Assembly: GCA_964016885.1 (NCBI GenBank)
Contig: OZ024741.1
Coordinates: forward strand, 102,052,001 to 102,116,000
Reading direction: 5' to 3'
Length of the DNA: 64,000 nt
From: Eledone cirrhosa
Lineage: Eukaryota
Below the pieces are notes generated by a model. The model did no database searches. It saw nothing but the letters and a program-made list of their open reading frames with translations, and was not told the origin of the DNA. The translations under genes and the position numbers were made by a program. Numbering within the stretch: the first letter of the stretch is position 1; each line of letters starts with the position of its first letter. Positions 366 through 64,000 of this stretch are shown one piece after another.

Positions 366-371
366 AACTGA

Positions 372-1010: not shown

Positions 1011-1023
1011 ATTATCTATAGAG

Positions 1024-8809: not shown

Positions 8810-8904
8810 GCCTCGGTAGCGCAGTAGGCAGCGCGTCAGTCTCATAATCAAAAGTAATACTTGGAGGAATCTGAAGGTCGTGAGTTCGATCCTCACCTGG
8901 GGCA
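8810..8904 (+). tRNA. tRNA-Met(CAT) elongator, 22-nt intron, A-type
   Basis: GCCTCGGTAGCGCAGTAGGCAGCGCGTCAGTCTCATA[ATCAAAAGTAATACTTGGAGGA]ATCTGAAGGTCGTGAGTTCGATCCTCACCTGGGGCA; 73-nt cloverleaf after splicing, G1:C72, T31/T39 and TTCGA loop as in eukaryotic elongator Met. Confidence 0.95.
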
Positions 8905-9800
8905 CAGTTATTTTGATCTTACTATTTTTTTGTGAGGTTCAATATTATCTTATAAAGGGATTAGAAAGCCATTTCATAAATCGAGTATGAGATATTTCGT
9001 AGATTCAGAAGTGATTGACTATATACACTCTGTTCTTTTAACCAAATTCTACACTGAATTAATGTGTACTTAGAAATGTGGTGTACATATGATATCTGTT
9101 TTGGTTATATTACCAGTTTTTCACTAATAACACGGAGATAATACCGGCATTGTGAGGGGGAAGCTATATTTTACAATAGACTTGGACCTATTACTAGTTT
9201 CGGGGACCCACATTTTACATGTGGCCTGGGTCTAATACCCTACTTGTGGGCCTACATTTAAGAATTGATCTTGACTTACTACAAGCTTTAGCGGAGTTCA
9301 TTTCTTAGCTCATATAGGTGCTATTATTAGCTTTGTCGGTCTAAATTTCAGAACAAAACTAGAGCTAGTAGCCGTTTCATGAGACTTGATTTCAGAAATG
9401 GGCTGGCCCTTTTATCAGCGTAAGTGGGTCCACATTTCAAAAATTGACATTGGTATATTACCAATTGTAGGTACCTACATATCCAACTACACCCGTCTTA
9501 TTACCAACTTCGGTGTCTAAATTTCAATTGATCTGGGAGAATCTATTTCAAATTTGGTCTGGTCCAAACACCAGTATTTGGGGACCTACGGTTCACATTT
9601 TATCTGGCCCTTAATATCAATTTAGGGGTCCCATATTTCACAACTATCCCTGGAGGAATGCCATCACCAGTAGATTTACTTTGGGGTTGACGGTGTGCTA
9701 ATTTTCACAATGAAGTCTTGGACATTGTACCTTAGCTGACATTATAGCAATTACCACGTGATAGTATTGATGTAGTTAAATATAAGTAGAGCTTCCAGTT

Positions 9801-9895
9801 ACCTCGGTAGCGCAGTAGGCAGCGCGTCAGTCTCATAATCAAAAGTAATTTTTGGAGGAATCTGAAGGTCGTGAGTTCGATCCTCACCTGGGGCA
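9801..9895 (+). tRNA. tRNA-Met(CAT), intron, B-slot, G1A variant
   Basis: Starts ACCTCGG; intron ATCAAAAGTAATTTTTGGAGGA; C66. Confidence 0.85.
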
Positions 9896-10797
9896 CATTT
9901 ATTTTGATTTTCATTATTTTTTTTGTGGGGTTAAATATTATCTTCTAAAGGCATTAGAAAGCCTTTTTCATGAATCGAAGAGGAGATATTTCGTAGATAC
10001 AGAAGTGATTAACAATATACAAAACCATATACTAGGTTTGGGGGTCCACATTTCACATTTGGCCTGTGTCTAAAACCATACTTGTCGGCCTATGTTTAAG
10101 AACTGATCTTGACACATTACCAGTTTTAGCGGAGTTTCATTTCTAAACACTCATGGTTCCATTATTAGCTTTGGGTGTCTAAATCTCAGAACTAACCTGG
10201 AGCTATTAACCATTTCTGTGACTAGATTTCACAATTGGGCTGGCCCGTTTATCAGCGTAAGAAGGTCCACATTTCAAAAATGACATTGGAATATTACGAA
10301 TTTTAGGTTTCTAGCCCAACTAAACCGGAATTATTACCAACTTTGGTGTCTAAATTTCAATAGACCTGTAAATATTTCCAGCTTTGGGAGATTAGATTTC
10401 AAATGTTGTCTGGTCCAAACACCAGCTTTGGGGACCTACATTTAATATTTTATTTGGCCCTTAATATCAATTCAGGGTGCCGATATTTCACAACTGTCCC
10501 TGGAGTAATGCCATCACTAGTAAATTTATTTTGGGGTTGACGGTGTGCTAATTTTCACATCTCACGAGTTTTGGTAGTCTACATTTGATAATAGATTCGG
10601 GCCTATTCCTAAGTTATGGAGGTTACGTTTTACATCTGACCTGGGACGATTATCAATTTCTGTAGCCTACATTTTACACTTCACCTGGTTATATAAGCAG
10701 ATTTCTTTACGAAATGGGTGTACACTTCACTTCTCATCTGGGCCTATATTCTGGTTTGCATGGGCTTAATTATAAATACGGTGAAATAGCCTGATTC

Positions 10798-10831
10798 GTG
10801 CGTGTGTGTGTGTGTAGGGGGGGGGGGGGGG
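10798..10831 (+). repeat. (GT)n(G)n compound microsatellite, one per dimer (example)
   Basis: gtgcgtgtgtgtgtgtgtaggggggggggggggg; length and interruptions vary between units. Confidence 0.9.
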
Positions 10832-11199
10832 CTCTACATATCAATATTTGTCTGGTCTTTAATACCAATTTAGGAGGCTAATGATTCAGGACTGTCCTTG
10901 GATAATTGCCTTCACCACGAAATTTATTTAGGGGCTGTGGGTATGCTATATTTAATATCTCCCGGGTTTTGGGAGTCTACATTTGAAGTGAGAGCAAATA
11001 AAAATCCATAATTATAGACCGTGGAACTTTTAGAATTTATGGTTATCACATTAGCACAAGAATGAAAGTACAACTAGTTTTTTTACTTAACAGATAATTA
11101 AAGTAGATAAGATATAATAGAGCAGCTATCGAAATATCTCTAATTAAACGTTAATGAGAGATACACATTGAAGTCTTGGACATTGTACTTTGGCTGACG

Positions 11200-11258
11200 T
11201 TATAGCAATTAGCAAGTGGTAGTGTTGATGTAGTTAAGTATAAGAAGAACTGTTAGTT
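11200..11258 (+). promoter_or_regulatory. Conserved 5' flank with TATA-like element (example; present before every gene)
   Basis: TATAGCAATTA, TTGATGTAGTTAA and TATAAG (about -20 to -15) shared by A, B and diverged copies; function inferred from Pol III upstream elements. Confidence 0.45.
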
Positions 11259-11353
11259 GCCTCGGTAGCGCAGTAGGCAGCGCGTCAGTCTCATAATCAG
11301 AAGTAATACTTGGAGGAATCTGAAGGTCGTGAGTTCGATCCTCACCTGGGGCA
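11259..11353 (+). tRNA. tRNA-Met(CAT), 22-nt intron, A-type
   Basis: Consensus exons; intron ATCAGAAGTAATACTTGGAGGA. Confidence 0.95.
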
Positions 11354-11359
11354 CAATTA

Positions 11360-11380
11360 TTTTGATCTTACTATTTTTTT
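11360..11380 (+). terminator. Pol III terminator (T4 then T7), A-type example
   Basis: TTTT at 11360-11363 and TTTTTTT at 11374-11380 directly after the gene; repeated in each unit. Confidence 0.8.
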
Positions 11381-12224
11381 GTGAGGTTCAATATTATCTT
11401 ATAAAGGCATTAGAAAGCCATTTCATAAATCGAGAATGAGATATTTCGTAGATTCAGAAGTGATTGACTATATACAATGTGTTCTTTTAACCAAATTTTA
11501 CACTGAATTAATGTGTACTTAGAAATGTGGTGTACATATGATATCTGTTTTGGTTATATTACCAGTTTTTCACTAATAACACGGAGATAATACCGGCATT
11601 GTGAGGGGGAAGCTATATTTTACAATAGACTTGGACCTATTACTAGTTTCGGGGACCCACATTGTACATGTGGGCCTACATTTAAGAATTGATCTTGACT
11701 TATTACAAGCTTTAGCGGAGTTCATTTCTTAGCTCATATAGGTGCTATTATTAGCTTTGTCGGTCTAAATTTCAGAACAAAACTAGAGCTAGTAGCCGTT
11801 TCATGAGACTTGATTTGAGAAGTGGGCTGGCCCTTTTCTCAGCGTAAGTGGGTCCACATTTGAAACATTGACATTGGTATAGTACCAATTGTAGGTACCT
11901 ACATATCCAACTACACCCGTCTTATTACCAACTTCGGTGTCTAAATTTCAATTGATCAGGGAGAATCTATTTCAAATTTGGTCTGGTCCAAACACCAGTA
12001 TTTGGGGACCTACGGTTCACATTTGATCTGACCCTAAATATCAATTTAGGGGTCCCATATTTCACAACTATCCCTGGAGGAATGCCATCACCAGTAGATT
12101 TACTTTGGGGTTGACGGTGTGCTAATTTTCACAATGAAGTCTTGGACATTGTACCTTAGCTGACATTATAGCAATTACCACGTGATAGGATTGATGTAGT
12201 TAAATATAAGCAGAGCTTCCAGTT

Positions 12225-12319
12225 GCCTCGGTAGCGCAGTAGGCAGCGCGTCAGTCTCATAATCAAAAGTAATAATTAGAGGAATCTGAAGGTCGTGAGT
12301 TCGATCCTCACTTGGGGCA
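12225..12319 (+). tRNA. tRNA-Met(CAT), 22-nt intron, B-type (T66)
   Basis: Intron ATCAAAAGTAATAATTAGAGGA; 3' end CTCACTTGGGGCA. Confidence 0.92.
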
Positions 12320-12325
12320 CATTTA

Positions 12326-12347
12326 TTTTGATTTTCATTATTTTTTT
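12326..12347 (+). terminator. Pol III terminator (T4, T4, T7), B-type example
   Basis: ttttgattttcattattttttt directly downstream of the gene. Confidence 0.8.
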
Positions 12348-13676
12348 GTGGGGTTAAATATTATATCCTAAAGGCATTAGAAAGCCTTTTTCATGAATCG
12401 AAGAGGAGATATTTCGTAGATACAGAAGTGATTAACAATATACAAAAACATATACTAGTTTTGGGGGTCCACTTTTCACATTTGGCCTGTGTCTAAAACC
12501 ATACTTGTCGGCCTATGTTTAAGAACTGATCTTGACACATTACCAGTTTTAGCGGAGTTCATTTCTAAACACTCATGGTTCCATTATTAGCTTTGGGTGT
12601 CTAAATCTCAGAACTAACCTGGAGCTATTAACCATTTCTGTGACTAGATTTCACAATTGGGCTGGCCCGTTTATCAGCGTAAGAAGGTCCACATTTCAAA
12701 AATGACATTGGAATATTACGAATTTTAGGTTTCTAGCCCAACTAAACCGGAATTATTACCAACTTTGGTGTCTAAATTTCAATAGACCTGTAAATATTTC
12801 CAGCTTTGGGAGATTAGATTTCAAATTTTGTCTGGTCCAAACACCAGCTTTGGGGACCTACATTTAATATTCTATTTGGCCCTTAATATCAATTCAGGGT
12901 GCCGATATTTCACAACTGTCCCTGGAGTAATGCCATCACTAGTAAATTTATTTTGGGGTTGACGGTGTGCTGATTTTCACATCTCACGAGTTTTGGTAGT
13001 CTACATTTGATAATAGATTCGGGCCTATTCCTAAGTTATGGAGGTTACGTTTTACATCTGACCTGGGACGATTATCAATTTCTGTAGCCTACATTTTACA
13101 CTTCACCTGGTTATATAAGCAGATTTCTTTACGGAATGGGTGTACACTTCACTTCTCATCTGGGCCTATATTCTGGTTTGCATGGGCTTAATTATAAATA
13201 CGGTGAAATAGCCTGATTCGTGCGTGTGTGTGTGTGGGGGGGGGGGGGGGCTCTACATATCAATATTTGTCTGGTCTTTAATACCAATTTAGGAGGCTAA
13301 TGATTCAGGACTGTCCTTGGATAATTGCCTTCACCACGAAATTTATTTAGGGGCTGTGGGTATGCTATATTTAATATCTCACGGGTTTTGGGAGTCTACA
13401 TTTGAAGTGAGAGCAAATAAAAATCCATAATTATAGACCGTGGAACTTTTAGAATTTATGGTTATCACATTAGCACAAGAATGAAAGTACAACTAGTTTT
13501 TTACTTAACAGATAATTAAAGTATATAAGATATAATAGAGCAGCTATCGAAATATCTCTAATTAAACGTTAATGAGAGATACACATTGAAGTCTTGGACA
13601 TTGTACATTGGCTGACGTTATAGCAATTAGCAAGTGGTAGTGTTGATGTAGTTAAGTATAAGAAAAACTGTTAGTT

Positions 13677-13771
13677 GCCTCGGTAGCGCAGTAGGCAGCG
13701 CGTCAGTCTCATAATAAGAAGTAATACTCTGAGGAATCTGAAGGTCGTGAGTTCGATCCTCACCTGGGGCA
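13677..13771 (+). tRNA. tRNA-Met(CAT), A-type, variant intron
   Basis: Consensus exons; intron ATAAGAAGTAATACTCTGAGGA. Confidence 0.94.
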
Positions 13772-14642
13772 CAATTATTTTGATCTTACTATTTTTTTGT
13801 GAGGTTCAATATTATCTTATAAAGGCATTAGAAAGCCATTTCATAAATCGAGAATGAGATATTTCGTAGATTCAGAAGTGATTGACTATATACAATGTGT
13901 TCTTTTAACCAAATTTTACACTGAATTAATGTGTACTTAGAAATGTGGTGTACATATGATATCTGTTTTGGTTATATTACCAGTTTTTCACTAATAACAC
14001 GGAGATAATACCGGCATTGTGAGGGGGAAGCTATATTTTACAATAGACTTGGACCTATTACTAGTTTTGGGGACTCACATTGTACATGTGGGCCTACATT
14101 TAAGAATTGATCTTGACTTATTACAAGCTTTAGCGGAGTTCATTTCTTAGCTCATATAGGTACTATTATTAGCTTTGTCGGTCTAAATTTCAGAACAAAA
14201 CTAGAGCTAGTAGCCGTTTCATGAGACTTGATTTGAGAAGTGGGCTGGCCCTTTTCTCAGCGTAAGTGGGTCCACATTTGAAACATTGACATTGGTATAG
14301 TACCAATTGTAGGTACCTACATATCCAACTACACCCGTCTTATTACCAACTTCGGTGTCTAAATTTCAATTGATCAGGGAGAATCTATTTCAAATTTGGT
14401 CTGGTCCAAACACCAGTATTTGGGGACCTACGGTTCACATTTGATCTGACCCTAAATATCAATTTAGGGGTCCCATATTTCACAACTATCCCTGGAGGAA
14501 TGCCATCACCAGTAGATTTACTTTGGGGTTGACGGTGTGCTAATTTTCACAATGAAGTCTTGGACATTGTACCTTAGCTGACATTATAGCAATTACCACG
14601 TGATAGGATTGATGTAGTTAAATATAAGCAGAGCTTCCAGTT

Positions 14643-14737
14643 GCCTCGGTAGCGCAGTAGGCAGCGCGTCAGTCTCATAATCAAAAGTAATAATTAGAGG
14701 AATCTGAAGGTCGTGAGTTCGATCCTCACTTGGGGCA
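14643..14737 (+). tRNA. tRNA-Met(CAT), intron, B-type (T66)
   Basis: Same as 12225 copy. Confidence 0.92.
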
Positions 14738-16094
14738 CATTTATTTTGATTTTCATTATTTTTTTGTGGGGTTAAATATTATATCCTAAAGGCATTAGAA
14801 AGCCTTTTTCATGAATCGAAGAGGAGATATTTCGTAGATACAGAAGTGATTAACAATATACAAAAACATATACTAGTTTTGGGGGTCCACTTTTCACATT
14901 TGGCCTGTGTCTAAAACCATACTTGTCGGCCTATGTTTAAGAACTGATCTTGACACATTACCAGTTTTAGCGGAGTTCAATTCTAAACACTCATGGTTCC
15001 ATTATTAGCTTTGGGTGTCTAAATCTCAGAACTAACCTGGAGCTATTAACCATTTCTGTGACTAGATTTCACAATTGGGCTGGCCCGTTTATCAGCGTAA
15101 GAAGGTCCACATTTCAAAAATGACATTGGAATATTACGAATTTTAGGTTTCTAGCCCAACTAAACCGGAATTATTACCAACTTTGGTGTCTAAATTTCAA
15201 TAGACCATAAATATTTCCAGCTTTGGGAGATTAGATTTCAAATTTTGTCTGGTCCAAACACCAGCTTTGGGGACCTACATTTAATATTCTATTTGGCCCT
15301 TAATATCAATTCAGGGTGCCGATATTTCACAACTGTCCCTGGAGTAATGCCATCACTAGTAAATTTATTTTGGGGTTGACGGTGTGCTAATTTTCACATC
15401 TCACGAGTTTTGGTAGTCTACATTTGATAATAGATTCGGGCCTATTCCTAAGTTATGGAGGTTACGTTTTACATCTGACCTGGGACGATTATCAATTTCT
15501 GTAGCCTACATTTTACACTTCACCTGGTTATATAAGCAGATTTCTTTACGGAATGGGTGTACACTTCACTTCTCATCTGGGCCTATATTCTGGTTTGCAT
15601 GGGCTTAATTATAAATACGGTGAAATAGCCTGATTCGTGCGTGTGTGTGTGTGGGGGGTGGGGGGTGGCTCTACATATCAATATTTGTCTGGTCTTTAAT
15701 ACCAATTTAGGAGGCTAATGATTCAGGACTGTCCTTGGATAATTGACTTCACCACGAAATTTATTTAGGGGCTGTGGGTATGCTATATTTAATATCTCAC
15801 GGGTTTTGGGAGTCTACATTTGAAGTGAGAGCAAATAAAAATCCATAATTATAGACCGTGGAACTTTTAGAATTTATGGTTATCACATTAGCACAAGAAT
15901 GAAAGTACAACTAGTTTTTTACTTAACAGATAATTAAAGTATATAAGATATAATAGAGCAGCTATCGAAATAACTCTAATTAAACGTTAATGAGAGATAC
16001 ACATTGAAGTCTTGGACATTGTACATTGGCTGACGTTATAGCAATTAGCAAGTGGTAGTGTTGATGTAGTTAAGTATAAGAAGAACTGTTAGTT

Positions 16095-16189
16095 GCCTCG
16101 GTAGCGCAGTAGGCAGCGCGTCAGTCTCATAATCAGAAGTAATACTTGGAGGAATCTGAAGGTCGTGAGTTCGATCCTCACCTGGGGCA
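16095..16189 (+). tRNA. tRNA-Met(CAT), intron, A-type
   Basis: Same as 11259 copy. Confidence 0.95.
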
Positions 16190-17060
16190 CAATTATTTTG
16201 ATCTTACTATTTTTTTGTGAGGTTCAATATTATCTTATAAAGGCATTAGAAAGCCATTTCATAAATCGAGAATGAGATATTTCGTAGATTCAGAAGTGAT
16301 TGACTATATACAATGTGTTCTTTTAACCAAATTTTACACTGAATTAATGTGTACTTAGAAATGTGGTGTACATATGATATCTGTTTTGGTTATATTACCA
16401 GTTTTTCACTAATAACACGGAGATAATACCGGCATTGTGAGGGGGAAGCTATATTTTACAATAGACTTGGACCTATTACTAGTTTCGGGGACCCACATTG
16501 TACATGTGGGCCTACATTTAAGAATTGATCTTGACTTATTACAAGCTTTAGCGGAGTTCATTTCTTAGCTCATATAGGTGCTATTATTAGCTTTGTCGGT
16601 CTAAATTTCAGAACAAAACTAGAGCTAGTAGCCGTTTCATGAGACTTGATTTGAGAAGTGGGCTGGCCCTTTTCTCAGCGTAAGTGGGTCCACATTTGAA
16701 ACATTGACATTGGTATAGTACCAATTGTAGGTACCTACATATCCAACTACACCCGTCTTATTACCAACTTCGGTGTCTAAATTTCAATTGATCAGGGAGA
16801 ATCTATTTCAAATTTGGTCTGGTCCAAACACCAGTATTTGGGGACCTACGGTTCACATTTGATCTGAACCTAAATATCAATTTAGGGGTCCCATATTTCA
16901 CAACTATCCCTGGAGGAATGCCATCACCAGTAGATTTACTTTGGGGTTGACGGTGTGCTAATTTTCACAATGAAGTCTTGGACATTGTACCTTAGCTGAC
17001 ATTATAGCAATTACCACGTGATAGGATTGATGTAGTTAAATATAAGCAGAGCTTCCAGTT

Positions 17061-17155
17061 GCCTCGGTAGCGCAGTAGGCAGCGCGTCAGTCTCATAATC
17101 AAAAGTAATAATTAGAGGAATCTGAAGGTCGTGAGTTCGATCCTCACTTGGGGCA
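17061..17155 (+). tRNA. tRNA-Met(CAT), intron, B-type (T66)
   Basis: Same as 12225 copy. Confidence 0.92.
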
Positions 17156-18512
17156 CGTTTATTTTGATTTTCATTATTTTTTTGTGGGGTTAAATATTAT
17201 ATCCTAAAGGCATTAGAAAGCCTTTTTCATGAATCGAAGAGGAGATATTTCGTAGATACAGAAGTGATTAACAATATACAAAAACATATACTAGTTTTGG
17301 GGGTCCACTTTTCACATTTGGCCTGTGTCTAAAACCATACTTGTCGGCCTATGTTTAAGAACTGATCTTGACACATTACCAGTTTTAGCGGAGTTCAATT
17401 CTAAACACTCATGGTTCCATTATTAGCTTTGGGTGTCTAAATCTCAGAACTAACCTGGAGCTATTAACCATTTCTGTGACTAGATTTCACAATTGGGCTG
17501 GCCCGTTTATCAGCGTAAGAAGGTCCACATTTCAAAAATGACATTGGAATATTACGAATTTTAGGTTTCTAGCCCAACTAAACCGGAATTATTACCAACT
17601 TTGGTGTCTAAATTTCAATAGACCATAAATATTTCCAGCTTTGGGAGATTAGATTTCAAATTTTGTCTGGTCCAAACACCAGCTTTGGGGACCTACATTT
17701 AATATTCTATTTGGCCCTTAATATCAATTCAGGGTGCCGATATTTCACAACTGTCCCTGGAGTAATGCCATCACTAGTAAATTTATTTTGGGGTTGACGG
17801 TGTGCTAATTTTCACATCTCACGAGTTTTGGTAGTCTACATTTGATAATAGATTCGGGCCTATTCCTAAGTTATGGAGGTTACGTTTTACATCTGACCTG
17901 GGACGATTATCAATTTCTGTAGCCTACATTTTACACTTCACCTGGTTATATAAGCAGATTTCTTTACGGAATGGGTGTACACTTCACTTCTCATCTGGGC
18001 CTATATTCTGGTTTGCATGGGCTTAATTATAAATACGGTGAAATAGCCTGATTCGTGCGTGTGTGTGTGTGGGGGGTGGGGGGTGGCTCTACATATCAAT
18101 ATTTGTCTGGTCTTTAATACCAATTTAGGAGGCTAATGATTCAGGACTGTCCTTGGATAATTGACTTCACCACGAAATTTATTTAGGGGCTGTGGGTATG
18201 CTATATTTAATATCTCACGGGTTTTGGGAGTCTACATTTGAAGTGAGAGCAAATAAAAATCCATAATTATAGACCGTGGAACTTTTAGAATTTATGGTTA
18301 TCACATTAGCACAAGAATGAAAGTACAACTAGTTTTTTACTTAACAGATAATTAAAGTATATAAGATATAATAGAGCAGCTATCGAAATAACTCTAATTA
18401 AACGTTAATGAGAGATACACATTGAAGTCTTGGACATTGTACATTGGCTGACGTTATAGCAATTAGCAAGTGGTAGTGTTGATGTAGTTAAGTATAAGAA
18501 AAACTGTTAGTT

Positions 18513-18607
18513 GCCTCGGTAGCGCAGTAGGCAGCGCGTCAGTCTCATAATCAGAAGTAATACTTGGAGGAATCTGAAGGTCGTGAGTTCGATCCTCACC
18601 TGGGGCA
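18513..18607 (+). tRNA. tRNA-Met(CAT), intron, A-type
   Basis: Same as 11259 copy. Confidence 0.95.
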
Positions 18608-19478
18608 CAATTATTTTGATCTTACTATTTTTTTGTGAGGTTCAATATTATCTTATAAAGGCATTAGAAAGCCATTTCATAAATCGAGAATGAGATATTT
18701 CGTAGATTCAGAAGTGATTGACTATATACAATGTGTTCTTTTAACCAAATTTTACACTGAATTAATGTGTACTTAGAAATGTGGTGTACATATGATATCT
18801 GTTTTGGTTATATTACCAGTTTTTCACTAATAACACGGAGATAATACCGGCATTGTGAGGGGGAAGCTATATTTTACAATAGACTTGGACCTATTACTAG
18901 TTTCGGGGACCCACATTGTACATGTGGGCCTACATTTAAGAATTGATCTTGACTTATTACAAGCTTTAGCGGAGTTCATTTCTTAGCTCATATAGGTGCT
19001 ATTATTAGCTTTGTCGGTCTAAATTTCAGAACAAAACTAGAGCTAGTAGCCGTTTCATGAGACTTGATTTGAGAAGTGGGCTGGCCCTTTTCTCAGCGTA
19101 AGTGGGTCCACATTTGAAACATTGACATTGGTATAGTACCAATTGTAGGTACCTACATATCCAACTACACCCGTCTTATTACCAACTTCGGTGTCTAAAT
19201 TTCAATTGATCAGGGAGAATCTATTTCAAATTTGGTCTGGTCCAAACACCAGTATTTGGGGACCTACGGTTCACATTTGATCTGACCCTAAATATCAATT
19301 TAGGGGTCCCATATTTCACAACTATCCCTGGAGGAATGCCATCACCAGTAGATTTACTTTGGGGTTGACGGTGTGCTAATTTTCACAATGAAGTCTTGGA
19401 CATTGTACCTTAGCTGACATTATAGCAATTACCACGTGATAGGATTGATGTAGTTAAATATAAGCAGAGCTTCCAGTT

Positions 19479-19573
19479 GCCTCGGTAGCGCAGTAGGCAG
19501 CGCGTCAGTCTCATAATCAAAAGTAATAATTAGAAGGATCTGAAGGTCGTGAGTTCGATCCTCACTTGGGGCA
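19479..19573 (+). tRNA. tRNA-Met(CAT), B-type (T66), altered intron 3' end
   Basis: Intron ends TAGAAGG instead of TAGAGGA. Confidence 0.85.
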
Positions 19574-20930
19574 CATTTATTTTGATTTTCATTATTTTTT
19601 TGTGGGGTTAAATATTATATCCTAAAGGCATTAGAAAGCCTTTTTCATGAATCGAAGAGGAGATATTTCGTAGATACAGAAGTGATTAACAATATACAAA
19701 AACATATACTAGTTTTGGGGGTCCACTTTTCACATTTGGCCTGTGTCTAAAACCATACTTGTCGGCCTATGTTTAAGAACTGATCTTGACACATTACCAG
19801 TTTTAGCGGAGTTCAATTCTAAACACTCATGGTTCCATTATTAGCTTTGGGTGTCTAAATCTCAGAACTAACCTGGAGCTATTAACCATTTCTGTGACTA
19901 GATTTCACAATTGGGCTGGCCCGTTTATCAGCGTAAGAAGGTCCACATTTCAAAAATGACATTGGAATATTACGAATTTTAGGTTTCTAGCCCAACTAAA
20001 CCGGAATTATTACCAACTTTGGTGTCTAAATTTCAATAGACCATAAATATTTCCAGCTTTGGGAGATTAGATTTCAAATTTTGTCTGGTCCAAACACCAG
20101 CTTTGGGGACCTACATTTAATATTCTATTTGGCCCTTAATATCAATTCAGGGTGCCGATATTTCACAACTGTCCCTGGAGTAATGCCATCACTAGTAAAT
20201 TTATTTTGGGGTTGACGGTGTGCTAATTTTCACATCTCACGAGTTTTGGTAGTCTACATTTGATAATAGATTCGGGCCTATTCCTAAGTTATGGAGGTTA
20301 CGTTTTACATCTGACCTGGGACGATTATCAATTTCTGTAGCCTACATTTTACACTTCACCTGGTTATATAAGCAGATTTCTTTACGGAATGGGTGTACAC
20401 TTCACTTCTCATCTGGGCCTATATTCTGGTTTGCATGGGCTTAATTATAAATACGGTGAAATAGCCTGATTCGTGCGTGTGTGTGTGGGGGGGGTGGGGG
20501 GTGGCTCTACATATCAATATTTGTCTGGTCTTTAATACCAATTTAGGAGGCTAATGATTCAGGACTGTCCTTGGATAATTGACTTCACCACGAAATTTAT
20601 TTAGGGGCTGTGGGTATGCTATATTTAATATCTCACGGGTTTTGGGAGTCTACATTTGAAGTGAGAGCAAATAAAAATCCATAATTATAGACCGTGGAAC
20701 TTTTAGAATTTATGGTTATCACATTAGCACAAGAATGAAAGTACAACTAGTTTTTTACTTAACAGATAATTAAAGTATATAAGATATAATAGAGCAGCTA
20801 TCGAAATAACTCTAATTAAACGTTAATGAGAGATACACATTGAAGTCTTGGACATTGTACATTGGCTGACGTTATAGCAATTAGCAAGTGGTAGTGTTGA
20901 TGTAGTTAAGTATAAGAAGAACTGTTAGTT

Positions 20931-21025
20931 GCCTCGGTAGCGCAGTAGGCAGCGCGTCAGTCTCATAATCAGAAGTAATACTTGGAGGAATCTGAAGGTC
21001 GTGAGTTCGATCCTCACCTGGGGCA
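20931..21025 (+). tRNA. tRNA-Met(CAT), intron, A-type
   Basis: Same as 11259 copy. Confidence 0.95.
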
Positions 21026-50890: not shown

Positions 50891-50985
50891 GCCTCGGTAG
50901 CGCAGTAGGCAGCGCGTCAGTCTCATAATCAAAAGTAATAATTAGAGGAATCTGAAGGTCGTGAGTTCGATCCTCACTTGGGGCA
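50891..50985 (+). tRNA. tRNA-Met(CAT), intron, B-type (T66)
   Basis: Same as 12225 copy. Confidence 0.92.
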
Positions 50986-52339: not shown

Positions 52340-52434
52340 GCCTCGGTAGCGCAGTAGGCAGCGCGTCAGTCTCATAATCAGAAGTAATACTTGGAGGAAT
52401 CTGAAGGTCGTGAGTTCGATCCTCACCTGGGGCA
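52340..52434 (+). tRNA. tRNA-Met(CAT), intron, A-type
   Basis: Same as 11259 copy. Confidence 0.95.
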
Positions 52435-53305
52435 CAATTATTTTGATCTTACTATTTTTTTGTGAGGTTCAATATTATCTTATAAAGGCATTAGAAAGCC
52501 ATTTCATAAATCGAGAATGAGATATTTCGTAGATTCAGAAGTGATTGACTATATACAATGTGTTCTTTTAACCAAATTTTACACTGAATTAATGTGTACT
52601 TAGAAATGTGGTGTACATATGATATCTGTTTTGGTTATATTACCAGTTTTTCACTAATAACACGGAGATAATACCGGCATTGTGAGGGGGAAGCTATATT
52701 TTACAATAGACTTGGACCTATTACTAGTTTCGGGGACCCACATTGTACATGTGGGCCTACATTTAAGAATTGATCTTGACTTATTACAAGCTTTAGCGGA
52801 GTTCATTTCTTAGCTCATATAGGTGCTATTATTAGCTTTGTCGGTCTAAATTTCAGAACAAAACTAGAGCTAGTAGCCGTTTCATGAGACTTGATTTGAG
52901 AAGTGGGCTGGCCCTTTTCTCAGCGTAAGTGGGTCCAGATTTGAAACATTGACATTGGTATAGTACCAATTGTAGGTACCTACATATCCAACTACACCCG
53001 TCTTATTACCAACTTCGGTGTCTAAATTTCAATTGATCAGGGAGAATCTATTTCAAATTTGGTCTGGTCCAAACACCAGTATTTGGGGACCTACGGTTCA
53101 CATTTGATCTGAACCTAAATATCAATTTAGGGGTCCCATATTTCACAACTATCCCTGGAGGAATGCCATCACCAGTAGATTTACTTTGGGGTTGACGGTG
53201 TGCTAATTTTCACAATGAAGTCTTGGACATTGTACCTTAGCTGACATTATAGCAATTACCACGTGATAGGATTGATGTAGTTAAATATAAGCAGAGCTTC
53301 CAGTT

Positions 53306-53400
53306 GCCTCGGTAGCGCAGTAGGCAGCGCGTCAGTCTCATAATCAAAAGTAATAATTAGAGGAATCTGAAGGTCGTGAGTTCGATCCTCACTTGGGGCA
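53306..53400 (+). tRNA. tRNA-Met(CAT), intron, B-type (T66)
   Basis: Same as 12225 copy. Confidence 0.92.
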
Positions 53401-54757
53401 CGTTTATTTTGATTTTCATTATTTTTTTGTGGGGTTAAATATTATATCCTAAAGGCATTAGAAAGCCTTTTTCATGAATCGAAGAGGAGATATTTCGTAG
53501 ATACAGAAGTGATTAACAATATACAAAAACATATACTAGTTTTGGGGGTCCACTTTTCACATTTGGCCTGTGTCTAAAACCATACTTGTCGGCCTATGTT
53601 TAAGAACTGATCTTGACACATTACCAGTTTTAGCGGAGTTCAATTCTAAACACTCATGGTTCCATTATTAGCTTTGGGTGTCTAAATCTCAGAACTAACC
53701 TGGAGCTATTAACCATTTCTGTGAATAGATTTCACAATTGGGCTGGCCCGTTTATCAGCGTAAGAAGGTCCACATTTCAAAAATGACATTGGAATATTAC
53801 GAATTTTAGGTTTCTAGCCCAACTAAACCGGAATTATTACCAACTTTGGTGTCTAAATTTCAATAGACCTGTAAATATTTCCAGCTTTGGGAGATTAGAT
53901 TTCAAATTTTGTCTGGTCCAAACACCAGCTTTAGGGACCTACATTTAATATTCTATTTGGCCCTTAATATCAATTCAGGGTGCCGATATTTCACAACTGT
54001 CCCTGGAGTAATGCCATCACTAGTAAATTTATTTTGGGGTTGACGGTGTGCTAATTTTCACATCTCACGAGTTTTGGTAGTCTACATTTGATAATAGATT
54101 CGGGCCTATTCCTAAGTTATGGAGGTTACGTTTTACATCTGACCTGGGACGATTATCAATTTCTGTAGCCTACATTTTACACTTCACCTGGTTATATAAG
54201 CAGATTTCTTTACGGAATGGGTGTACACTTCACTTCTCATCTGGGCCTATATTCTGGTTTGCATGGGCTTAATTATAAATACGGTGAAATAGCCTGATTC
54301 GTGCGTGTGTGTGTGTGTGTGTGGGGGGGGGCTCTACATATCAATATTTGTCTGGTCTTTAATACCAATTTAGGAGGCTAATGATTCAGGACTGTCCTTG
54401 GATAATTGACTTCACCACGAAATTTATTTAGGGGCTGTGGGTATGCTATATTTAATATCTCACGGGTTTTGGGAGTCTACATTTGAAGTGAGAGCAAATA
54501 AAAATCCATAATTATAGACCGTGGAACTTTTAGAATTTATGGTTATCACATTAGCACAAGAATGAAAGTACAACTAGTTTTTTACTTAACAGATAATTAA
54601 AGTATATAAGATATAATAGAGCAGCTATCGAAATATCTCTAATTAAACGTTAATGAGAGATACACATTGAAGTCTTGGACATTGTACTTTGGCTGACGTT
54701 ATAGCAATTAGCAAGTGGTAGTGTTGATGTAGTTAAGTATAAGAAAAACTGTTAGTT

Positions 54758-54852
54758 GCCTCGGTAGCGCAGTAGGCAGCGCGTCAGTCTCATAATCAGA
54801 AGTAATACTTGGAGGAATCTTAAGGTCGTGAGTTCGATCCTCACCTGGGGCA
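54758..54852 (+). tRNA. tRNA-Met(CAT), A-type, G42T variant
   Basis: Exon 2 starts ATCTTAAGG, breaking the C28:G42 anticodon-stem pair. Confidence 0.8.
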
Positions 54853-55723
54853 CAATTATTTTGATCTTACTATTTTTTTGTGAGGTTCAATATTATCTTA
54901 TAAAGGCATTAGAAAGCCATTTCATAAATCGAGAATGAGATATTTCGTAGATTTAGAAGTGATTGACTATATACAATGTGTTCTTTTAACCAAATTTTAC
55001 ACTGAATTAATGTGTACTTAGAAATGTGGTGTACATATGATATCTGTTTTGGTTATATTAACAGTTTTTCACTAATAACACGGAGATAATACCGGCATTG
55101 TGAGGGGGAAGCTATATTTTACAATAGACTTGGACCTATTACTAGTTTCGGGGACCCACATTGTACATGTGGGCCTACATTTAAGAATTGATCTTGACTT
55201 ATTACAAGCTTTAGCGGAGTTCATTTCTTAGCTCATATAGGTGCTATTATTAGCTTTGTCGGTCTAAATTTCAGAACAAAACTAGAGCTAGTAGCCGTTT
55301 CATGAGACTTGATTTCAGAAATGGGCTGGCCCTTTTATCAGTGTAAGTGTGTCCACATTTTAAAAATTGACATTGGTATATTACCAATTGTAGCTACCTA
55401 CATATCCAACTACACCCGTCTTATTACCCATTTTGGTGTCTAAATTTCAATTGATCTGGGAGAATCTATTTCAAATTTGGTCTGGTCCAAACACCAGCAT
55501 TTGGGGACCTACTGTTCACATTTGATCTGGCCCTTAATACCAATTTAGGGGTCCCATATTTCACAACTATCCCTGGAGGAATGCCATCACCAGTAGATTT
55601 ACTTTGGGGTTGACGGTGTGCTAATTTTCACAATGAAGTCTTGGACATTGTACCTTAGCTGACATTATAGCAATTACCACGTGATAGTATTGATGTAGTT
55701 AAATATAAATAAAGCTTGTAGTT

Positions 55724-55818
55724 GCCTCGGTAGCGCAGTAGGCAGCGCGTCAGCCTCATAATCAAAAGTAATAATTAGAGGAATCTGAAGGTCGTGAGTT
55801 CGATCCTCACCTGGGGCA
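55724..55818 (+). tRNA. tRNA-Met(CAT), B-slot, T31C variant
   Basis: TCAGCCTCATA; C66; B intron. Confidence 0.88.
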
Positions 55819-56826
55819 TATTTATTTTGATTTTCATTATTTTTTTTGTGGGGTTCAATATTATCTTCTAAAGTCATTAGAAAGCCTTTTTCATGAATCG
55901 AAGAGGAGATATGTCGTAGATACAGAAGTGATTAACAATATACAAAACCATATACTAGGTTTGGGTGTCCACTTTTCATATTTGGCCTGCGTCTGAAACC
56001 ATACTTTTCGGCCTATGTTTAAGAACTGATTTTTACCCATTACCAGTTTTAGCGGAGTTTCATTTCTAAACACTCATGGTTCCATTATTAGCTTTGGGTG
56101 TCTAAATCTAAGAACTAACCTGGAGCTATCAACCATTTCTGTCACTAGATTTCACAATTGGGCTGGCCCGTTTATCAGCGTAAGCAGGTCCACATTTCAA
56201 AAATGACATTGGAATATTACGAATTTTAGGTTTCTAGCCCAACTAAACCGGAATTATTACCAACTTTGGTGTCTAAATTTCAATTGACCTGTAAACATTT
56301 CCATCTTTGGGAGATTAGATTTCAAATTTTGTCTGGTCCAAACACCAGCTTTGGGGACCTACATTTAATATTCTATTTGGCCCTTAATATCAATTCAGGG
56401 TGCCGATATTTCACACCTGTCCCTGGAGGAATGCCATCACTAGTAAATTTATTTTGGGGTTGACGGTGTGCTAATTTTCACATCTCACGAGTTTTGGTAG
56501 TCTACATTTCAAAATAGATTCGGGCCTATTCCTAAGTTATGGAGGTTACGTGTTACATCTGACCTGGGACGATTATCAATTTCTGTAGCCTACATTTTAC
56601 ACTTCACCTGGTCATATAAGCAGATTTCTTTACGGAGTGGGTGTACATTTCACTTCTCATCTGGGCCTATATTCTGGTTTGCATGGGCTTAATTATAAAT
56701 ACGGTGAAATAGCCTGATTCGTGTGTGTGTGTGTGTGGGGGGGGGGGGGGTCATCTACATATCGATATTTGTCTGGTCTTTAATACCAATTTAGGAGTCT
56801 TATCAATCACGACTGCCCTTGGATAA

Positions 56827-57229
56827 TTGCCTTTACCATGAAATTTATGTAGGGTCTTATGTGTCTGCTATATTTAAAATCTTACGGGTTTTGGGAGTCT
56901 ACATTTGAAGTGAGAGCAAATAAAAATCGATAATCAGAGACCGTGGAGTTTTCAGATTTTATGGTTAAATGCTCAACATAAGAATGAAAGTACACCAGTC
57001 TTGTACTTCAGGTAATTAAAGTAGATTTGCCATCACCACCAAATTTATTACTGGGCTGGAAGTATGCTATATTTAATATCTCACGGATTTTGGAAGTCTA
57101 CATTTGAAGTGAGTGAAAATAAAAATCCATGATTAGAGACCGTGGAGTTTTCAGAATTTATGGTTAAATGCTGAATATAAGAATGAATCTACAACTAGTT
57201 TTTTTATTTAACAGGTATATAAAGTAGAT
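56827..57229 (+). repeat. Diverged ~200-bp tandem duplication in the spacer
   Basis: ttgcc...aaatttat...gtctacatttgaagtgag...aaagtagat occurs twice, starting at 56827 and 57027; same at ~61738/61938. Confidence 0.8.
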
Positions 57230-58222
57230 AAAGCAGTTATGAAAATATCTCTAATTGAAAGTTAATGAGACATACATAATGAAGACTTAGACATTGTACA
57301 TTGGCTGACAATATAGCAATTAGCAAGTGATAGTGTTGATGTAGTAAAATATGAGTGAAACCGAGGTTCAATATTATCTTCTGAAGGCATTAGATAGCCC
57401 ATTTCATGAATCGAGGAGGAGATATTTCGTAGATTCAGAAGTGATTGACTATATACACTCTGTTCTTTTAACCAAATTTTACTCTGAATTAATGTGTACT
57501 TAGAAATGTGGTGTACATATGATATCTGTTTCGCTTATATTACCAGTTTTTCACTAATAACACGGAGATAATACCGGTATTGGGAGGGGGAGGCTATATT
57601 TTACAATAGATGTGGACCTATTACTAGTTTCGCGGACCCACATTTTACATGTGGCCTGGGTCTAATACCCCACTTGTGGGCCTACATTTAAGAATTGATC
57701 TTGACTTATTACAAGTTTTAACGGGGTTCATTTCTTAGCTCATATAGGTGCTATTATTAGCTTTGTGGGTCTAAATTTCAGAACAAAACTAGAGCTAGTA
57801 GCCGTTTCATGAGACTTGATTTCAGAAATGGGCTGGCTCCTTTATCGGCGTAAGTGGGTCCACATTTCAAAAACTGACATTGGTATATTACCAATGGTAG
57901 GTACCTACTTACCTATTACACCCGACTTATTACCAACTTTGGTGTCTTAATTTAAATTGATCTGGTCCTATTTCCAGCTTTGGGAGAATCTATTTCAAAT
58001 TTGGTCTAGTCCAAATACCAGCTTTGGGGACCTTAACATCAATGTAGGGGTCCCATATTTCACAACTATCCCTGGAGGAATGCCATCACCAGTAGATTTA
58101 CTTTGGGGTTGACGGTGTGCTAATTTTCACAATGAAGTCTTGGACATTGTACCTTAGCTGACATTATAGCAATTACCACGTGATAGTATTGATGTAGTTA
58201 AATATAAGCAGCGCTTACAGTT

Positions 58223-58317
58223 GCCTCGGTAGCGCAGTAGGCAGCGCGTCAGTCTCATAATCAAAAGTAATTCTTGGAGGAATCTGAAGGTCGTGAGTTC
58301 GATCCTCACCTGGGGCA
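58223..58317 (+). tRNA. tRNA-Met(CAT), B-slot, consensus exons (C66)
   Basis: Intron ATCAAAAGTAATTCTTGGAGGA. Confidence 0.95.
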
Positions 58318-59670
58318 CATTTATTTTGATTTTCATTATTTTTTTGTGGGGTTAAATATTATATCCTAAAGGCATTAGAAAGCCTTTTTCATGAATCGAA
58401 GAGGAGATATTTCGTAGATACAGAAGTGATTAACAATATACAAAAACATATACTAGTTTTGGGGGTCCACTTTTCACATTTGGCCTGTGTCTAAAACCAT
58501 ACTTGTCGGCCTATGTTTAAGAACTGATCTTGACACATTACCAGTTTTAGCGGAGTTCAATTCTAAACACTCATGGTTCCATTATTAGCTTTGGGTGTCT
58601 AAATCTCAGAACTAACCTGGAGCTATTAACCATTTCTGTGACTAGATTTCACAATTGGGCTGGCCCGTTTATCAGCGTAAGAAGGTCCACATTTCAAAAA
58701 TGACATTGGAATATTACGAATTTTAGGTTTCTAGCCCAACTAAACCGGAATTATTACCAACTTTGGTGTCTAAATTTCAATAGACCTGTAAATATTTCCA
58801 GCTTTGGGAGATTAGATTTCAAATTTTGTCTGGTCCAAACACCAGCTTTGGGGACCTACATTTAATATTCTATTTGGCCCTTAATATCAATTCAGGGTGC
58901 CGATATTTCACAACTGTCCCTGGAGTAATGCCATCACTAGTAAATTTATTTTGGGGTTGACGGTGTGCTAATTTTCACATCTCACGAGTTTTGGTAGTCT
59001 ACATTTGATAATAGATTCGGGCCTATTCCTAAGTTATGGAGGTTACGTTTTACATCTGACCTGGGACGATTATCAATTTCTGTAGCCTACATTTTACACT
59101 TCACCTGGTTATATAAGCAGATTTCTTTACGGAATGGGTGTACACTTCACTTCTCATCTGGGCCTATATTCTGGTTTGCATGGGCTTAATTATAAATACG
59201 GTGAAATAGCCTGATTCGTGCGTGTGTGTGTGGGGGGGTGGTGGCTCTACATATCAATATTTGTCTGGTCTTTAATACCAATTTAGGAGGCTAATGATTC
59301 AGGACTGTCCTTGGATAATTGACTTCACCACGAAATTTATTTAGGGGCTGTGGGTATGCTATATTTAATATCTCACGGGTTTTGGGAGTCTACATTTGAA
59401 GTGAGAGCAAATAAAAATCCATAATTATAGACCGTGGAACTTTTAGAATTTATGGTTATCACATTAGCACAAGAATGAAAGTACAACTAGTTTTTTACTT
59501 AACAGATAATTAAAGTATATAAGATATAATAGAGCAGCTATCGAAATAACTCTAATTAAACGTTAATGAGAGATACACATTGAAGTCTTGGACATTGTAC
59601 ATTGGCTGACGTTATAGCAATTAGCAAGTGGTAGTGTTGATGTAGTTAAGTATAAGAAGAACTGTTAGTT

Positions 59671-59765
59671 GCCTCGGTAGCGCAGTAGGCAGCGCGTCAG
59701 TCTCGTAATCAGAAGTAATACTTGGAGGAATCTGAAGGTCGTGAGTTCGATCCTCACCTGGGGCA
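59671..59765 (+). tRNA. tRNA-Met-derived gene with CGT (Thr) anticodon, 22-nt intron
   Basis: TCAGTCTCGTAATC: A35G at 59705; otherwise identical to the A-type gene. Confidence 0.85.
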
Positions 59766-60636
59766 CAATTATTTTGATCTTACTATTTTTTTGTGAGGTT
59801 CAATATTATCTTATAAAGGCATTAGAAAGCCATTTCATAAATCGAGAATGAGATATTTCGTAGATTCAGAAGTGATTGACTATATACAATGTGTTCTTTT
59901 AACCAAATTTTACACTGAATTAATGTGTACTTAGAAATGTGGTGTACATATGATATCTGTTTTGGTTATATTACCAGTTTTTCACTAATAACACGGAGAT
60001 AATACCGGCATTGTGAGGGGGAAGCTATATTTTACAATAGACTTGGACCTATTACTAGTTTCGGGGACCCACATTGTACATGTGGGCCTACATTTAAGAA
60101 TTGATCTTGACTTATTACAAGCTTTAGCGGAGTTCATTTCTTAGCTCATATAGGTGCTATTATTAGCTTTGTCGGTCTAAATTTCAGAACAAAACTAGAG
60201 CTAGTAGCCGTTTCATGAGACTTGATTTGAGAAGTGGGCTGGCCCTTTTCTCAGCGTAAGTGGGTCCAGATTTGAAACATTGACATTGGTATAGTACCAA
60301 TTGTAGCTACCTACATATCCAACTACACCCGTCTTATTACCCATTTTGGTGTCTAAATTTCAATTGATCTGGGAGAATCTATTTCAAATTTGGTCTGGTC
60401 CAAACACCAGCATTTGGGGACCTACTGTTCACATTTGATCTGGCCCTTAATACCAATTTAGGGGTCCCATATTTCACAACTATCCCTGGAGGAATGCCAT
60501 CACCAGTAGATTTACTTTGGGGTTGACGGTGTGCTAATTTTCACAATGAAGTCTTGGACATTGTACCTTAGCTGACATTATAGCAATTACCACGTGATAG
60601 TATTGATGTAGTTAAATATAAATAAAGCTTGTAGTT

Positions 60637-60731
60637 GCCTCGGTAGCGCAGTAGGCAGCGCGTCAGCCTCATAATCAAAAGTAATAATTAGAGGAATCTG
60701 AAGGTCGTGAGTTCGATCCTCACCTGGGGCA
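60637..60731 (+). tRNA. tRNA-Met(CAT), B-slot, T31C variant
   Basis: Same as 55724 copy. Confidence 0.88.
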
Positions 60732-63133
60732 TATTTATTTTGATTTTCATTATTTTTTTTGTGGGGTTCAATATTATCTTCTAAAGTCATTAGAAAGCCT
60801 TTTTCATGAATCGAAGAGGAGATATGTCGTAGATACAGAAGTGATTAACAATATACAAAACCATATACTAGGTTTGGGTGTCCACTTTTCATATTTGGCC
60901 TGCGTCTGAAACCATACTTTTCGGCCTATGTTTAAGAACTGATTTTTACCCATTACCAGTTTTAGCGGAGTTTCATTTCTAAACACTCATGGTTCCATTA
61001 TTAGCTTTGGGTGTCTAAATCTAAGAACTAACCTGGAGCTATCAACCATTTCTGTCACTAGATTTCACAATTGGGCTGGCCCGTTTATCAGCGTAAGCAG
61101 GTCCACATTTCAAAAATGACATTGGAATATTACGAATTTTAGGTTTCTAGCCCAACTAAACCGGAATTATTACCAACTTTGGTGTCTAAATTTCAATTGA
61201 CCTGTAAACATTTCCATCTTTGGGAGATTAGATTTCAAATTTTGTCTGGTCCAAACACCAGCTTTGGGGACCTACATTTAATATTCTATTTGGCCCTTAA
61301 TATCAATTCAGGGTGCCGATATTTCACACCTGTCCCTGGAGGAATGCCATCACTAGTAAATTTATTTTGGGGTTGACGGTGTGCTAATTTTCACATCTCA
61401 CGAGTTTTGGTAGTCTACATTTCAAAATAGATTCGGGCCTATTCCTAAGTTATGGAGGTTACGTGTTACATCTGACCTGGGACGATTATCAATTTCTGTA
61501 GCCTACATTTTACACTTCACCTGGTCATATAAGCAGATTTCTTTACGGAGTGGGTGTACATTTCACTTCTCATCTGGGCCTATATTCTGGTTTGCATGGG
61601 CTTAATTATAAATACGGTGAAATAGCCTGATTCGTGTGTGTGTGTGTGGGGGGGGGGGGTGTCATCTACATATCAATATTTGTCTGGTCTTTAATACCAA
61701 TTTAGGAGTCTTATCAATCACGACTGCCCTTGGATAATTGCCTTTACCATGAAATTTATGTAGGGTCTTATGTGTCTGCTATATTTAAAATCTTACGGGT
61801 TTTGGGAGTCTACATTTGAAGTGAGAGCAAATAAAAATCGATAATCAGAGACCGTGGAGTTTTCAGATTTTATGGTTAAATGCTCAACATAAGAATGAAA
61901 GTACACCAGTCTTGTACTTCAGGTAATTAAAGTAGATTTGCCATCACCACCAAATTTATTACTGGGCTGGAAGTATGCTATATTTAATATCTCACGGATT
62001 TTGGAAGTCTACATTTGAAGTGAGTGCAAATAAAAATCCATGATTAGAGACCGTGGAGTTTTCAGAATTTATGGTTAAATGCTGAATATAAGAATGAATC
62101 TACAACTAGTTTTTTTATTTAACAGGTATATAAAGTAGATAAAGCAGTTATGAAAATATCTCTAATTGAAAGTTAATGAGACATACATAATGAAGACTTA
62201 GACATTGTACATTGGCTGACAATATAGCAATTAGCAAGTGATAGTGTTGATGTAGTAAAATATGAGTGAAACCGAGGTTCAATATTATCTTCTGAAGGCA
62301 TTAGATAGCCCATTTCATGAATCGAGGAGGAGATATTTCGTAGATTCAGAAGTGATTGACTATATACACTCTGTTCTTTTAACCAAATTTTACTCTGAAT
62401 TAATGTGTACTTAGAAATGTGGTGTACATATGATATCTGTTTCGGTTATATTACCAGTTTTTCACTAATAACACGGAGATAATACCGGTATTGGGAGGGG
62501 GAGGCTATATTTTACAATAGATGTGGACCTATTACTAGTTTCGCGGACCCACATTTTACATGTGGCCTGGGTCTAATACCCCACTTGTGGGCCTACATTT
62601 AAGAATTGATCTTGACTTACTACAAGTTTTAACGGGGTTCATTTCTTAGCTCATATAGGTGCTATTATTAGCTTTGTGGGTCTAAATTTCAGAACAAAAC
62701 TAGAGCTAGTAGCCGTTTCATGAGACTTGATTTCAGAAATGGGCTGGCTCCTTTATCGGCGTAAGTGGGTCCACATTTCAAAAACTGACATTGGTATATT
62801 ACCAATGGTAGGTACCTACTTACCTATTACACCCGACTTATTACCAACTTTGGTGTCTTAATTTAAATTGATCTGGTCCTATTTCCAGCTTTGGGAGAAT
62901 CTATTTCAAATTTGGTCTAGTCCAAATACCAGCTTTGGGGACCTTAACATCAATGTAGGGGTCCCATATTTCACAACTATCCCTGGAGGAATGCCATCAC
63001 CAGTAGATTTACTTTGGGGTTGACGGTGTGCTAATTTTCACAATGAAGTCTTGGACATTGTACCTTAGCTGACATTATAGCAATTACCACGTGATAGTAT
63101 TGATGTAGTTAAATATAAGCAGCGCTTACAGTT

Positions 63134-63228
63134 GCCTCGGTAGCGCAGTAGGCAGCGCGTCAGTCTCATAATCAAAAGTAATTCTTGGAGGAATCTGAAG
63201 GTCGTGAGTTCGATCCTCACCTGGGGCA
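63134..63228 (+). tRNA. tRNA-Met(CAT), B-slot, consensus exons (C66)
   Basis: Same as 58223 copy. Confidence 0.95.
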
Positions 63229-64000
63229 CATTTATTTTGATTTTCATTATTTTTTTGTGGGGTTAAATATTATATCCTAAAGGCATTAGAAAGCCTTTTT
63301 CATGAATCGAAGAGGAGATATTTCGTAGATACAGAAGTGATTAACAATATACAAAAACATATACTAGTTTTGGGGGTCCACTTTTCACATTTGGCCTGTG
63401 TCTAAAACCATACTTGTCGGCCTATGTTTAAGAACTGATCTTGACACATTACCAGTTTTAGCGGAGTTCAATTCTAAACACTCATGGTTCCATTATTAGC
63501 TTTGGGTGTCTAAATCTCAGAACTAACCTGGAGCTATTAACCATTTCTGTGACTAGATTTCACAATTGGGCTGGCCCGTTTATCAGCGTAAGAAGGTCCA
63601 CATTTCAAAAATGACATTGGAATATTACGAATTTTAGGTTTCTAGCCCAACTAAACCGGAATTATTACCAACTTTGGTGTCTAAATTTCAATAGACCTGT
63701 AAATATTTCCAGCTTTGGGAGATTAGATTTCAAATTTTGTCTGGTTCAAACACCAGCTTTGGGGACCTACATTTAATATTCTATTTGGCCCTTAATATCA
63801 ATTCAGGGTGTCGATATTTCACAACTGTCCCTGGAGTAATGCCATCACTAGTAAATTTATTTTGGGGTTGACGGTGTGCTAATTTTCACATCTCACGAGT
63901 TTTGGTAGTCTACATTTGATAATAGATTCGGGCCTATTCCTAAGTTATGGAGGTTACGTTTTACATCTGACCTGGGACGATTATCAATTTCTGTAGCCTA

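Follow-up and report, generated by a model that had tools for sequence, protein, structure and literature searches.

A young core array of intron-containing elongator tRNA-Met genes within a large one-isotype cluster of Eledone cirrhosa

Tandem arrays of tRNA genes have been described in several eukaryotes. The proline homoclusters of Arabidopsis consist of tandem genes of one isotype, five within 5 kb and in the same orientation, and compact homoclusters were found to be infrequent in metazoans (four model species; PMC13578239). Clusters of 50 or more tRNA genes are known from Nematostella and teleosts, where they are large, mostly parallel and intermixed with pseudogenes; pairs are mostly heterogeneous in Nematostella, clawed frog and zebrafish, and in drosophilids the pairs are mostly homogeneous and the clusters small (PMC2888827). 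Tandem animal repeats with Met genes include the 3.18-kb tRNA repeat of Xenopus laevis and the tRNA-Met clusters of salmonids (PMC1635290), and arrays of tRNA genes in Entamoeba are mentioned in PMC2888827. The latter are long and tandem, with spacers of short tandem repeats (STR). The 64-kb stretch analysed here (hereafter the window; C2:102052001-102116000 of a 3.0-Gb assembly of Eledone cirrhosa, in which C1, C2, C3 and so on denote contigs) holds an array of intron-containing elongator tRNA-Met genes that shares one or more of these traits with each of these systems. It differs from the heterogeneous pairs in being pure Met, from the oocyte-linked Xenopus unit, with its eight tRNA genes of several types, in having a unit of two genes of one type, and from the Entamoeba arrays in its spacers without STR blocks, its single isotype and its internal location on a 416-Mb contig. 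In contrast to the infrequency described for metazoans, each of the six tRNA types located in this genome has such a cluster, and the Met cluster holds 96 copies. With a probability of roughly 0.7, the array would be the young core of the main elongator tRNA-Met cluster, a housekeeping source of this tRNA shaped by unequal crossing-over and ordinary birth-and-death turnover. Though large, it is likely an ordinary tRNA homocluster and as such an object of a known kind; the parts worth following are the occurrence in an animal of an elongator-Met intron and the homocluster layout of the genome as a whole.

Positions refer to the window; negative numbers and those above 64000 lie outside it on the same contig, and 100 kb was added on each side for the analysis of extent (264 kb in all, no N). 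With one copy as query, BLAST gave 47 matches in the window, 44 of which form a plus-strand, head-to-tail array of elongator tRNA-Met(CAT) genes at 8810-63228. ARAGORN with introns enabled made 43 calls across the array span, of which 41 are Met(CAT) and the other two Ile and Thr, with two copies fused in one call, and placed a 22-nt intron after position 37 in the core genes, and all five array copies in 1-14000 score 45.7-52 bits against RF00005 of Rfam, the gathering score of which is 29. The array reported by the original prediction, an earlier reading of the sequence, was thus recovered at its full count of 44, and the intron, promoter boxes, oligo-T terminators and elongator identity that it listed are all supported by the sequence. 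However, the array is not still running at the window edge, as had been stated: only two further genes follow, and the core of 46 genes closes at 65642, 1.6 kb past the edge. Its regularity holds over most of the core, where A and B types alternate at spacings of 966 and about 1450 bp, but from 54758 on the 2.4-kb AB dimer is replaced by a 4.9-kb three-gene unit with repeats that are 99.4-99.6% identical. In all 46 core genes a T4 run begins 7 nt 3' of the gene, with at least five T at +21/22. Only Met bodies, and no other isotype body, were found in the cluster, and the spacers gave no short tandem repeats (TRF, 0 rows at score 50). Five consecutive core genes span about 4.93 kb, which falls within the homocluster definition of at least five genes of one isotype in 5 kb (PMC13578239); under the 1000-nt rule of PMC2888827, only the A-to-B pairs count as clustered. 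The main features of the core are as follows.

8810..63228, plus strand: young core array of intron-containing elongator tRNA-Met genes, 44 genes in the window (BLAST, ARAGORN).
16095..18512, plus strand: example of the AB dimer unit, 2418 bp (unit alignment).
16095..16189, plus strand: example of an A-type gene, intron 16132-16153, exons identical to those of dispersed genes on C7 and C8.
17061..17155, plus strand: example of a B-type gene with C66U, intron 17098-17119.
54758..64000, plus strand: 4.9-kb three-gene repeat (A, B' with U31C, and C), about 2.5 copies, extending beyond the window.
59671..59765, plus strand: A-type copy whose sole change is A35G, which gives the anticodon CGT.

By cloverleaf, anticodon and identity bases, the core genes are assigned to the cytosolic elongator tRNA-Met genes. 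The marks G1:C72, T54 and U31:U39, which separate elongator from initiator tRNA-Met, are present in the core genes, and the initiator Met genes form a separate, intronless family elsewhere in the genome. The tRNA body is, we presume, of animal type. All 46 core genes retain the invariant base set, including A73; the anticodon is CAT in 45 and CGT in one. The exons had been described as nearly invariant, which is true of the 21 core genes that equal the A sequence; the rest vary, with C66U in 17 genes (where the acceptor stem thus has two neighbouring G:U pairs at its base, the other being G6:U67), U31C in three and a stem mismatch in five (one of them also C66U), so that 41 are free of mismatch. 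An Ile(AAT) identity was rejected, being an artefact of the unspliced intron for which ARAGORN with introns off miscalls 22 copies, and tRNA scans that do not support introns should be expected to misread these Met genes in the same way.

Met-body copies with CGT, a Thr anticodon, were seen five times in the cluster, and a sixth copy reads AGT. Anticodon variants lie, besides the copy at 59671-59765 (+), at -23255, -3790, 71807 (with three exon changes) and 92309. The A35G change has at least two origins, judged by flank type, and is possible raw material for anticodon shifts.

The feature unusual for an animal is the intron itself, which the original prediction did not flag as such. It lies between positions 37 and 38 and is 22 nt long in the core and 21-22 nt long in ten full-length dispersed genes (one each on C3, C4, C5, C7 and C20, and five on C8), all of which carry it. 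These ten, with three truncated copies, make up the 13 matches outside the cluster among 87 genome-wide pattern matches. Relative to A, their exons have 0-4 changes in 73 sites (at most one in eight genes), and their introns match A at only 12-18 of 21-22 sites. All ten introns start with ATC and have GAG at -5..-3, which is capable of pairing with C32-U33-C34. Pairing of C32 with intron G(-3) is the rule for canonical TSEN-type tRNA introns, and this pair is present in 45 of 46 core genes. The exact spliced exon-exon junction has no match in the assembly, which may be incomplete. A looser intronless pattern has 38 matches, and among the ten inspected, which look like short interspersed elements (SINE) and include the sole one with the anticodon stem of this tRNA, none is a tRNA call. 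Since all full-length genes carry the intron and these searches turned up no gene without it, mature elongator tRNA-Met in this genome would depend on splicing. Unconstrained folding of four pre-tRNAs missed the full cloverleaf in three (z-scores -0.2 to -1.6) and is not used as evidence.

Introns of Met(CAU) genes are conserved in plants and fungi (576 genomes; PMC12168002), to which this elongator intron was also assigned in PMC13578239, and animals were suggested to have lost it in a recent review. In plants and fungi the intron likewise lies one base 3' of CAT in the elongator and not in the initiator (PMC12168002; PMC13578239). Here, however, it occurs in an animal whose tRNA body is of the animal type, and the likeness observed is one of position. 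The tRNA introns are known to be both gained and lost (PMC4090602). The open-access literature yielded no report of an elongator-Met intron in animals or of cephalopod tRNA arrays, and invertebrate GtRNAdb entries may already show the intron; the available parts of PMC4536317, PMC2770079, PMC12506671 and PMC6279123 contain nothing on it. A post hoc lead hints at an origin by local duplication: in five of 12 introns tested, all of the C8/C4 type and of one lineage, the start of exon 2 recurs as a 7-8-nt copy at intron position 6 (shuffle p 0.0006-0.0024), the other seven are without it, and the first 8 nt of the A intron match exon 2 at seven sites. We hold it to be about evenly poised whether an animal lineage, likely octopods and possibly further molluscs, obtains all its elongator tRNA-Met by splicing out a supposedly animal-lost intron, which either persisted from early eukaryotes or was regained when the anticodon arm was duplicated locally, and whether most tRNA genes of this lineage sit in one-isotype arrays that expand and decay independently of one another, with array turnover setting the tRNA dosage. 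The intron bears on whether tRNA introns are ancient with piecemeal loss or have been regained, and it offers an animal test system for the proposed intron-dependent modification of this tRNA, with C34 methylation as one candidate.

The youth of the core is seen from its 18 aligned dimer units (2401-2428 bp), which differ by a mean of 10.7 substitutions per pair (about 0.4%). Variants are shared among subsets of units as a patchwork, and divergence does not depend on distance (rho 0.07, p 0.41), a pattern that would fit unequal exchange and conversion. The unit at 35439-37839, which is 21-30 substitutions from the other 17 and has a 22-nt deletion, resembles the first B copy at 9801 and is likely an older unit or a conversion tract. 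It is highly improbable that the copy number arose through expansion of a few units during assembly: a TG/poly-G tract, which is prone to sequencing error, contains several of the variable sites, as such an expansion would allow, but it is disfavoured because none of the 153 unit pairs is identical and substitutions are common to unit subsets, and the divergent unit just described, the distinct 4.9-kb unit that closes the array and the lack of N argue in the same direction. Three sequencing runs of one study contain 0.80-0.83 of the words of the unit and may be the sample of the assembly itself, three runs from other organisms contain small shares, and no RNA run is among the sequencing runs listed as containing unit words.

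The core belongs to a wider cluster of 96 matches over about 120 kb, from -25.9 kb to +93.2 kb of the window, which, like the older copies at 3043, 4464 and 7577, is absent from the original prediction. The 50 copies outside the core sit on both strands and most of them are damaged. With nine partial or deleted matches left out, exons identical to A were found in six of 41 full-length old copies, and a filter that requires CAT, intact stems and the invariant bases retains eight of 41. The segment left of the core has a 90.7% identical duplicate right of it; because of this duplicate and the distinct 4.9-kb unit at the right end, the cluster appears to have seen several duplication rounds. The older copies in the window are listed here.

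3043..3137, minus strand: older inverted copy with G1A (RF00005, BLAST).
4464..4558, minus strand: older inverted and decayed copy with seven exon changes (BLAST).
7577..7654, plus strand: pseudogene relic that lost 16 nt across the 3' splice site; its near-identical counterpart is at 73835 in the 90.7% duplicate.

At the upstream end of the cluster, the copy at -25904..-25837 has otherwise unchanged exons and has lost the intron together with 5 nt of exon 2, which reads as an imprecise deletion and no clean intron loss. GC-rich inserts are found among the old copies at 372-1043 and 5400-7000, with open reading frames (ORFs) of 224 aa at 372 and 215 aa at 5775 that by eye resemble retrotransposon pieces. 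No host gene was identified among the long ORFs across the 264 kb, which by eye also look like retrotransposon pieces.

The exon invariance of the core was initially taken to suggest selection on the tRNA, and as proof of selection it was rejected: exon columns vary as often as spacer columns (5/146 vs 44/2202, p=0.23), so that no constraint is visible inside the core and the invariance there would reflect youth, or recent amplification. The claim fares better between the two gene types, since A and B differ at one of 73 exon sites (the sole change being C66U), at three of 22 intron sites and at 21% of a homologous 487-nt spacer block (binomial p=7e-7), which supports selection on the tRNA. 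Selection appears only between A and B copies and at the dispersed loci. One may ask if the core is rather a largely silent, tRNA-bearing macrosatellite, possibly a TFIIIC chromatin boundary, with the tRNA being supplied by dispersed genes. The missing exon constraint would agree with it, as would the 17 B copies whose weakened acceptor stem spread along with the unit, the eight dispersed genes with at most one exon change on C5, C7, C8 and C20, and the tissue-dependent repression or reactivation noted for tRNA gene clusters of Arabidopsis (PMC13578239). Yet 21 of 46 core genes share their exons exactly with dispersed genes, the A and B exons stayed alike despite the divergence of their spacers, invariant bases and T run are kept in 46 of 46, and the cluster has a mutational hotspot of the transcription type, which together make a silent satellite unlikely.

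This hotspot was found in the 5' flanks of 43 copies (41 old, one A and one B), among which 560 of 903 pairs had alignable flanks. Mismatch was 0.57-0.59 at -15..-6, 0.13-0.18 at -30..-16 and 0.13 at -5..-1, and in 19 disjoint pairs 75 of 180 sites differ at -15..-6 vs 26 of 271 at -30..-16 (p=3e-15). An example from the core is given below.

16080..16089, plus strand: the -15..-6 stretch, hypervariable among the copies of the cluster and flanked by the conserved blocks -30..-16 and -5..-1.

Thornlow et al. (PMC6130373) described a flank profile of active tRNA genes in which divergence peaks 12-15 nt upstream and variability is lower near -25, the TBP binding site, and the same pattern is known from nematodes (PMC13010820). 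Because the hotspot matches this published footprint of tRNA transcription, the cluster was probably active in the past, and the match suggests that its genes were transcribed in the germ line. The array of Arg-TCG genes in the same genome also has the hotspot (0.41 and 0.36 vs 0.13-0.21).

The question of dosage was approached through the other tRNA types, whose counts, obtained with differing queries, do not amount to a census. Elongator Met has 87 genome matches, 74 of them in this cluster (21-nt pattern, one mismatch), and initiator Met has 117 (100 listed), with arrays on C3 and C4 and 18 of 18 calls in 30 kb. The Thr array at C1:243650001-243690000, open at both ends, gave 67 calls in 40 kb; Thr anticodons are present in 57 of them, and the other ten are by eye anticodon variants of the same body. 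For Arg-TCG, 32 of 40 scored matches (115 candidates) are on C6, and 36 of 41 calls in the 40 kb sampled are of this type; for Lys-CTT, 41 of 51 matches lie in two arrays, with 11 of 11 calls in 20 kb of one; for Arg-TCT, 12 of 31 matches fall within 5.1 kb on C15, a putatively pure array. Since every tRNA type located has a one-isotype array, elongator Met is no outlier, and the array appears special neither to Met nor within its genome; the view that it exceeds normal Met dosage had to be given up, as five other types are arrayed alike and initiator Met has more matches. The same facts bear on the idea that selection favoured the core as a Met source of high dosage or of a stage-specific (oocyte) type, with B (C66U) as a special isodecoder. 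The young amplification did roughly quadruple the intact-looking genes (37 in the core, A-like or C66U-only, vs eight old ones), and oocyte-type tRNA repeats are known in Xenopus (PMC1635290), but A has no distinct stage-specific sequence, because its exons equal those of dispersed genes, and a selection signal within the core is missing, which leaves such a source distinctly unlikely. Neither the stage-specific nor the structural reading finds support in the sequence. A tRNA-derived SINE was also considered and rejected, as the matches are concentrated in one cluster and carry the full tRNA with intron and T run.

In the housekeeping reading, a surviving gene pair would have been re-amplified by unequal crossing-over to give the young core. 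Each gene would act as a separate Pol III unit with A/B boxes and its own T run, and its intron would be excised by TSEN and RTCB ligase, guided by the conserved C32:intron G(-3) pair; the core is likely transcribed and spliced. Transcription would mutate the -15..-6 stretch and the gene bodies, copies would decay and a surviving pair would amplify again. Large one-isotype arrays of this kind in a metazoan, in which variants of flank and intron tag each copy, allow birth, decay and transcription-linked mutation to be measured at the level of copies.

Several observations weigh against this reading. Gene conversion may account for part of the A/B exon identity, since A and B are 88% alike across 316 nt around the gene. 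Among old copies, the 19 closest disjoint pairs differ at 62 of 699 sites in exon 1 (0.089) and at 89 of 943 in the distal flank (0.094), so that the old copies appear to be without net selection, as expected for pseudogenes, and C66U was amplified nonetheless in 17 of 46 core genes. The hotspot would record the history of the old copies and not of the young core, whose present transcription is predicted; moreover, the Arg-TCG array has it clearly and the Thr array weakly. Mixed clusters exist as well, since C8:3.875-3.905 Mb interleaves five elongator-Met and five intronless Arg-TCT genes, and the array pattern as a whole rests on the six tRNA types located.

Among the other arrays, that of initiator Met at C4:357.865-357.895 Mb and that of Lys-CTT at C4:128.68-128.70 Mb are young and regular, with periods of about 1.55 kb and 1.9 kb, and are of the same kind as the core. 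In the Thr array, one tRNA body occurs with AGT and with TGT anticodons, and single-base variants of the anticodon are present as well. Neither a Tyr pattern nor the TTT branch of the Lys pattern had a genome match, which is uninformative about the genes of these types. An Rfam search of the genome gave 16 matches among 63 candidates scored, mostly a dispersed SINE-like tRNA family; this high-scoring family has shared flanks, variable anticodons (mostly GGC) and one copy per locus on several contigs, and it is likely a tRNA-headed mobile element.

Elsewhere in the assembly, the molluscan haemocyanin domain PF14830 has 39 genome matches, seven of which lie in one 10.5-kb gene-like run. These matches identify the genome as that of a mollusc and, seven units being a mark of octopods, make an octopod likely. 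One such unit scores best, as a single domain, against PDB 1js8_A (855 bits; next 738), an octopus protein. At least five haemocyanin gene-like runs were seen, three in tandem on C1 (173.74-173.91 Mb) and an inverted pair on C26 (21.93-22.02 Mb), and haemocyanin gene-like sequence is also present at C27:61-68 kb.

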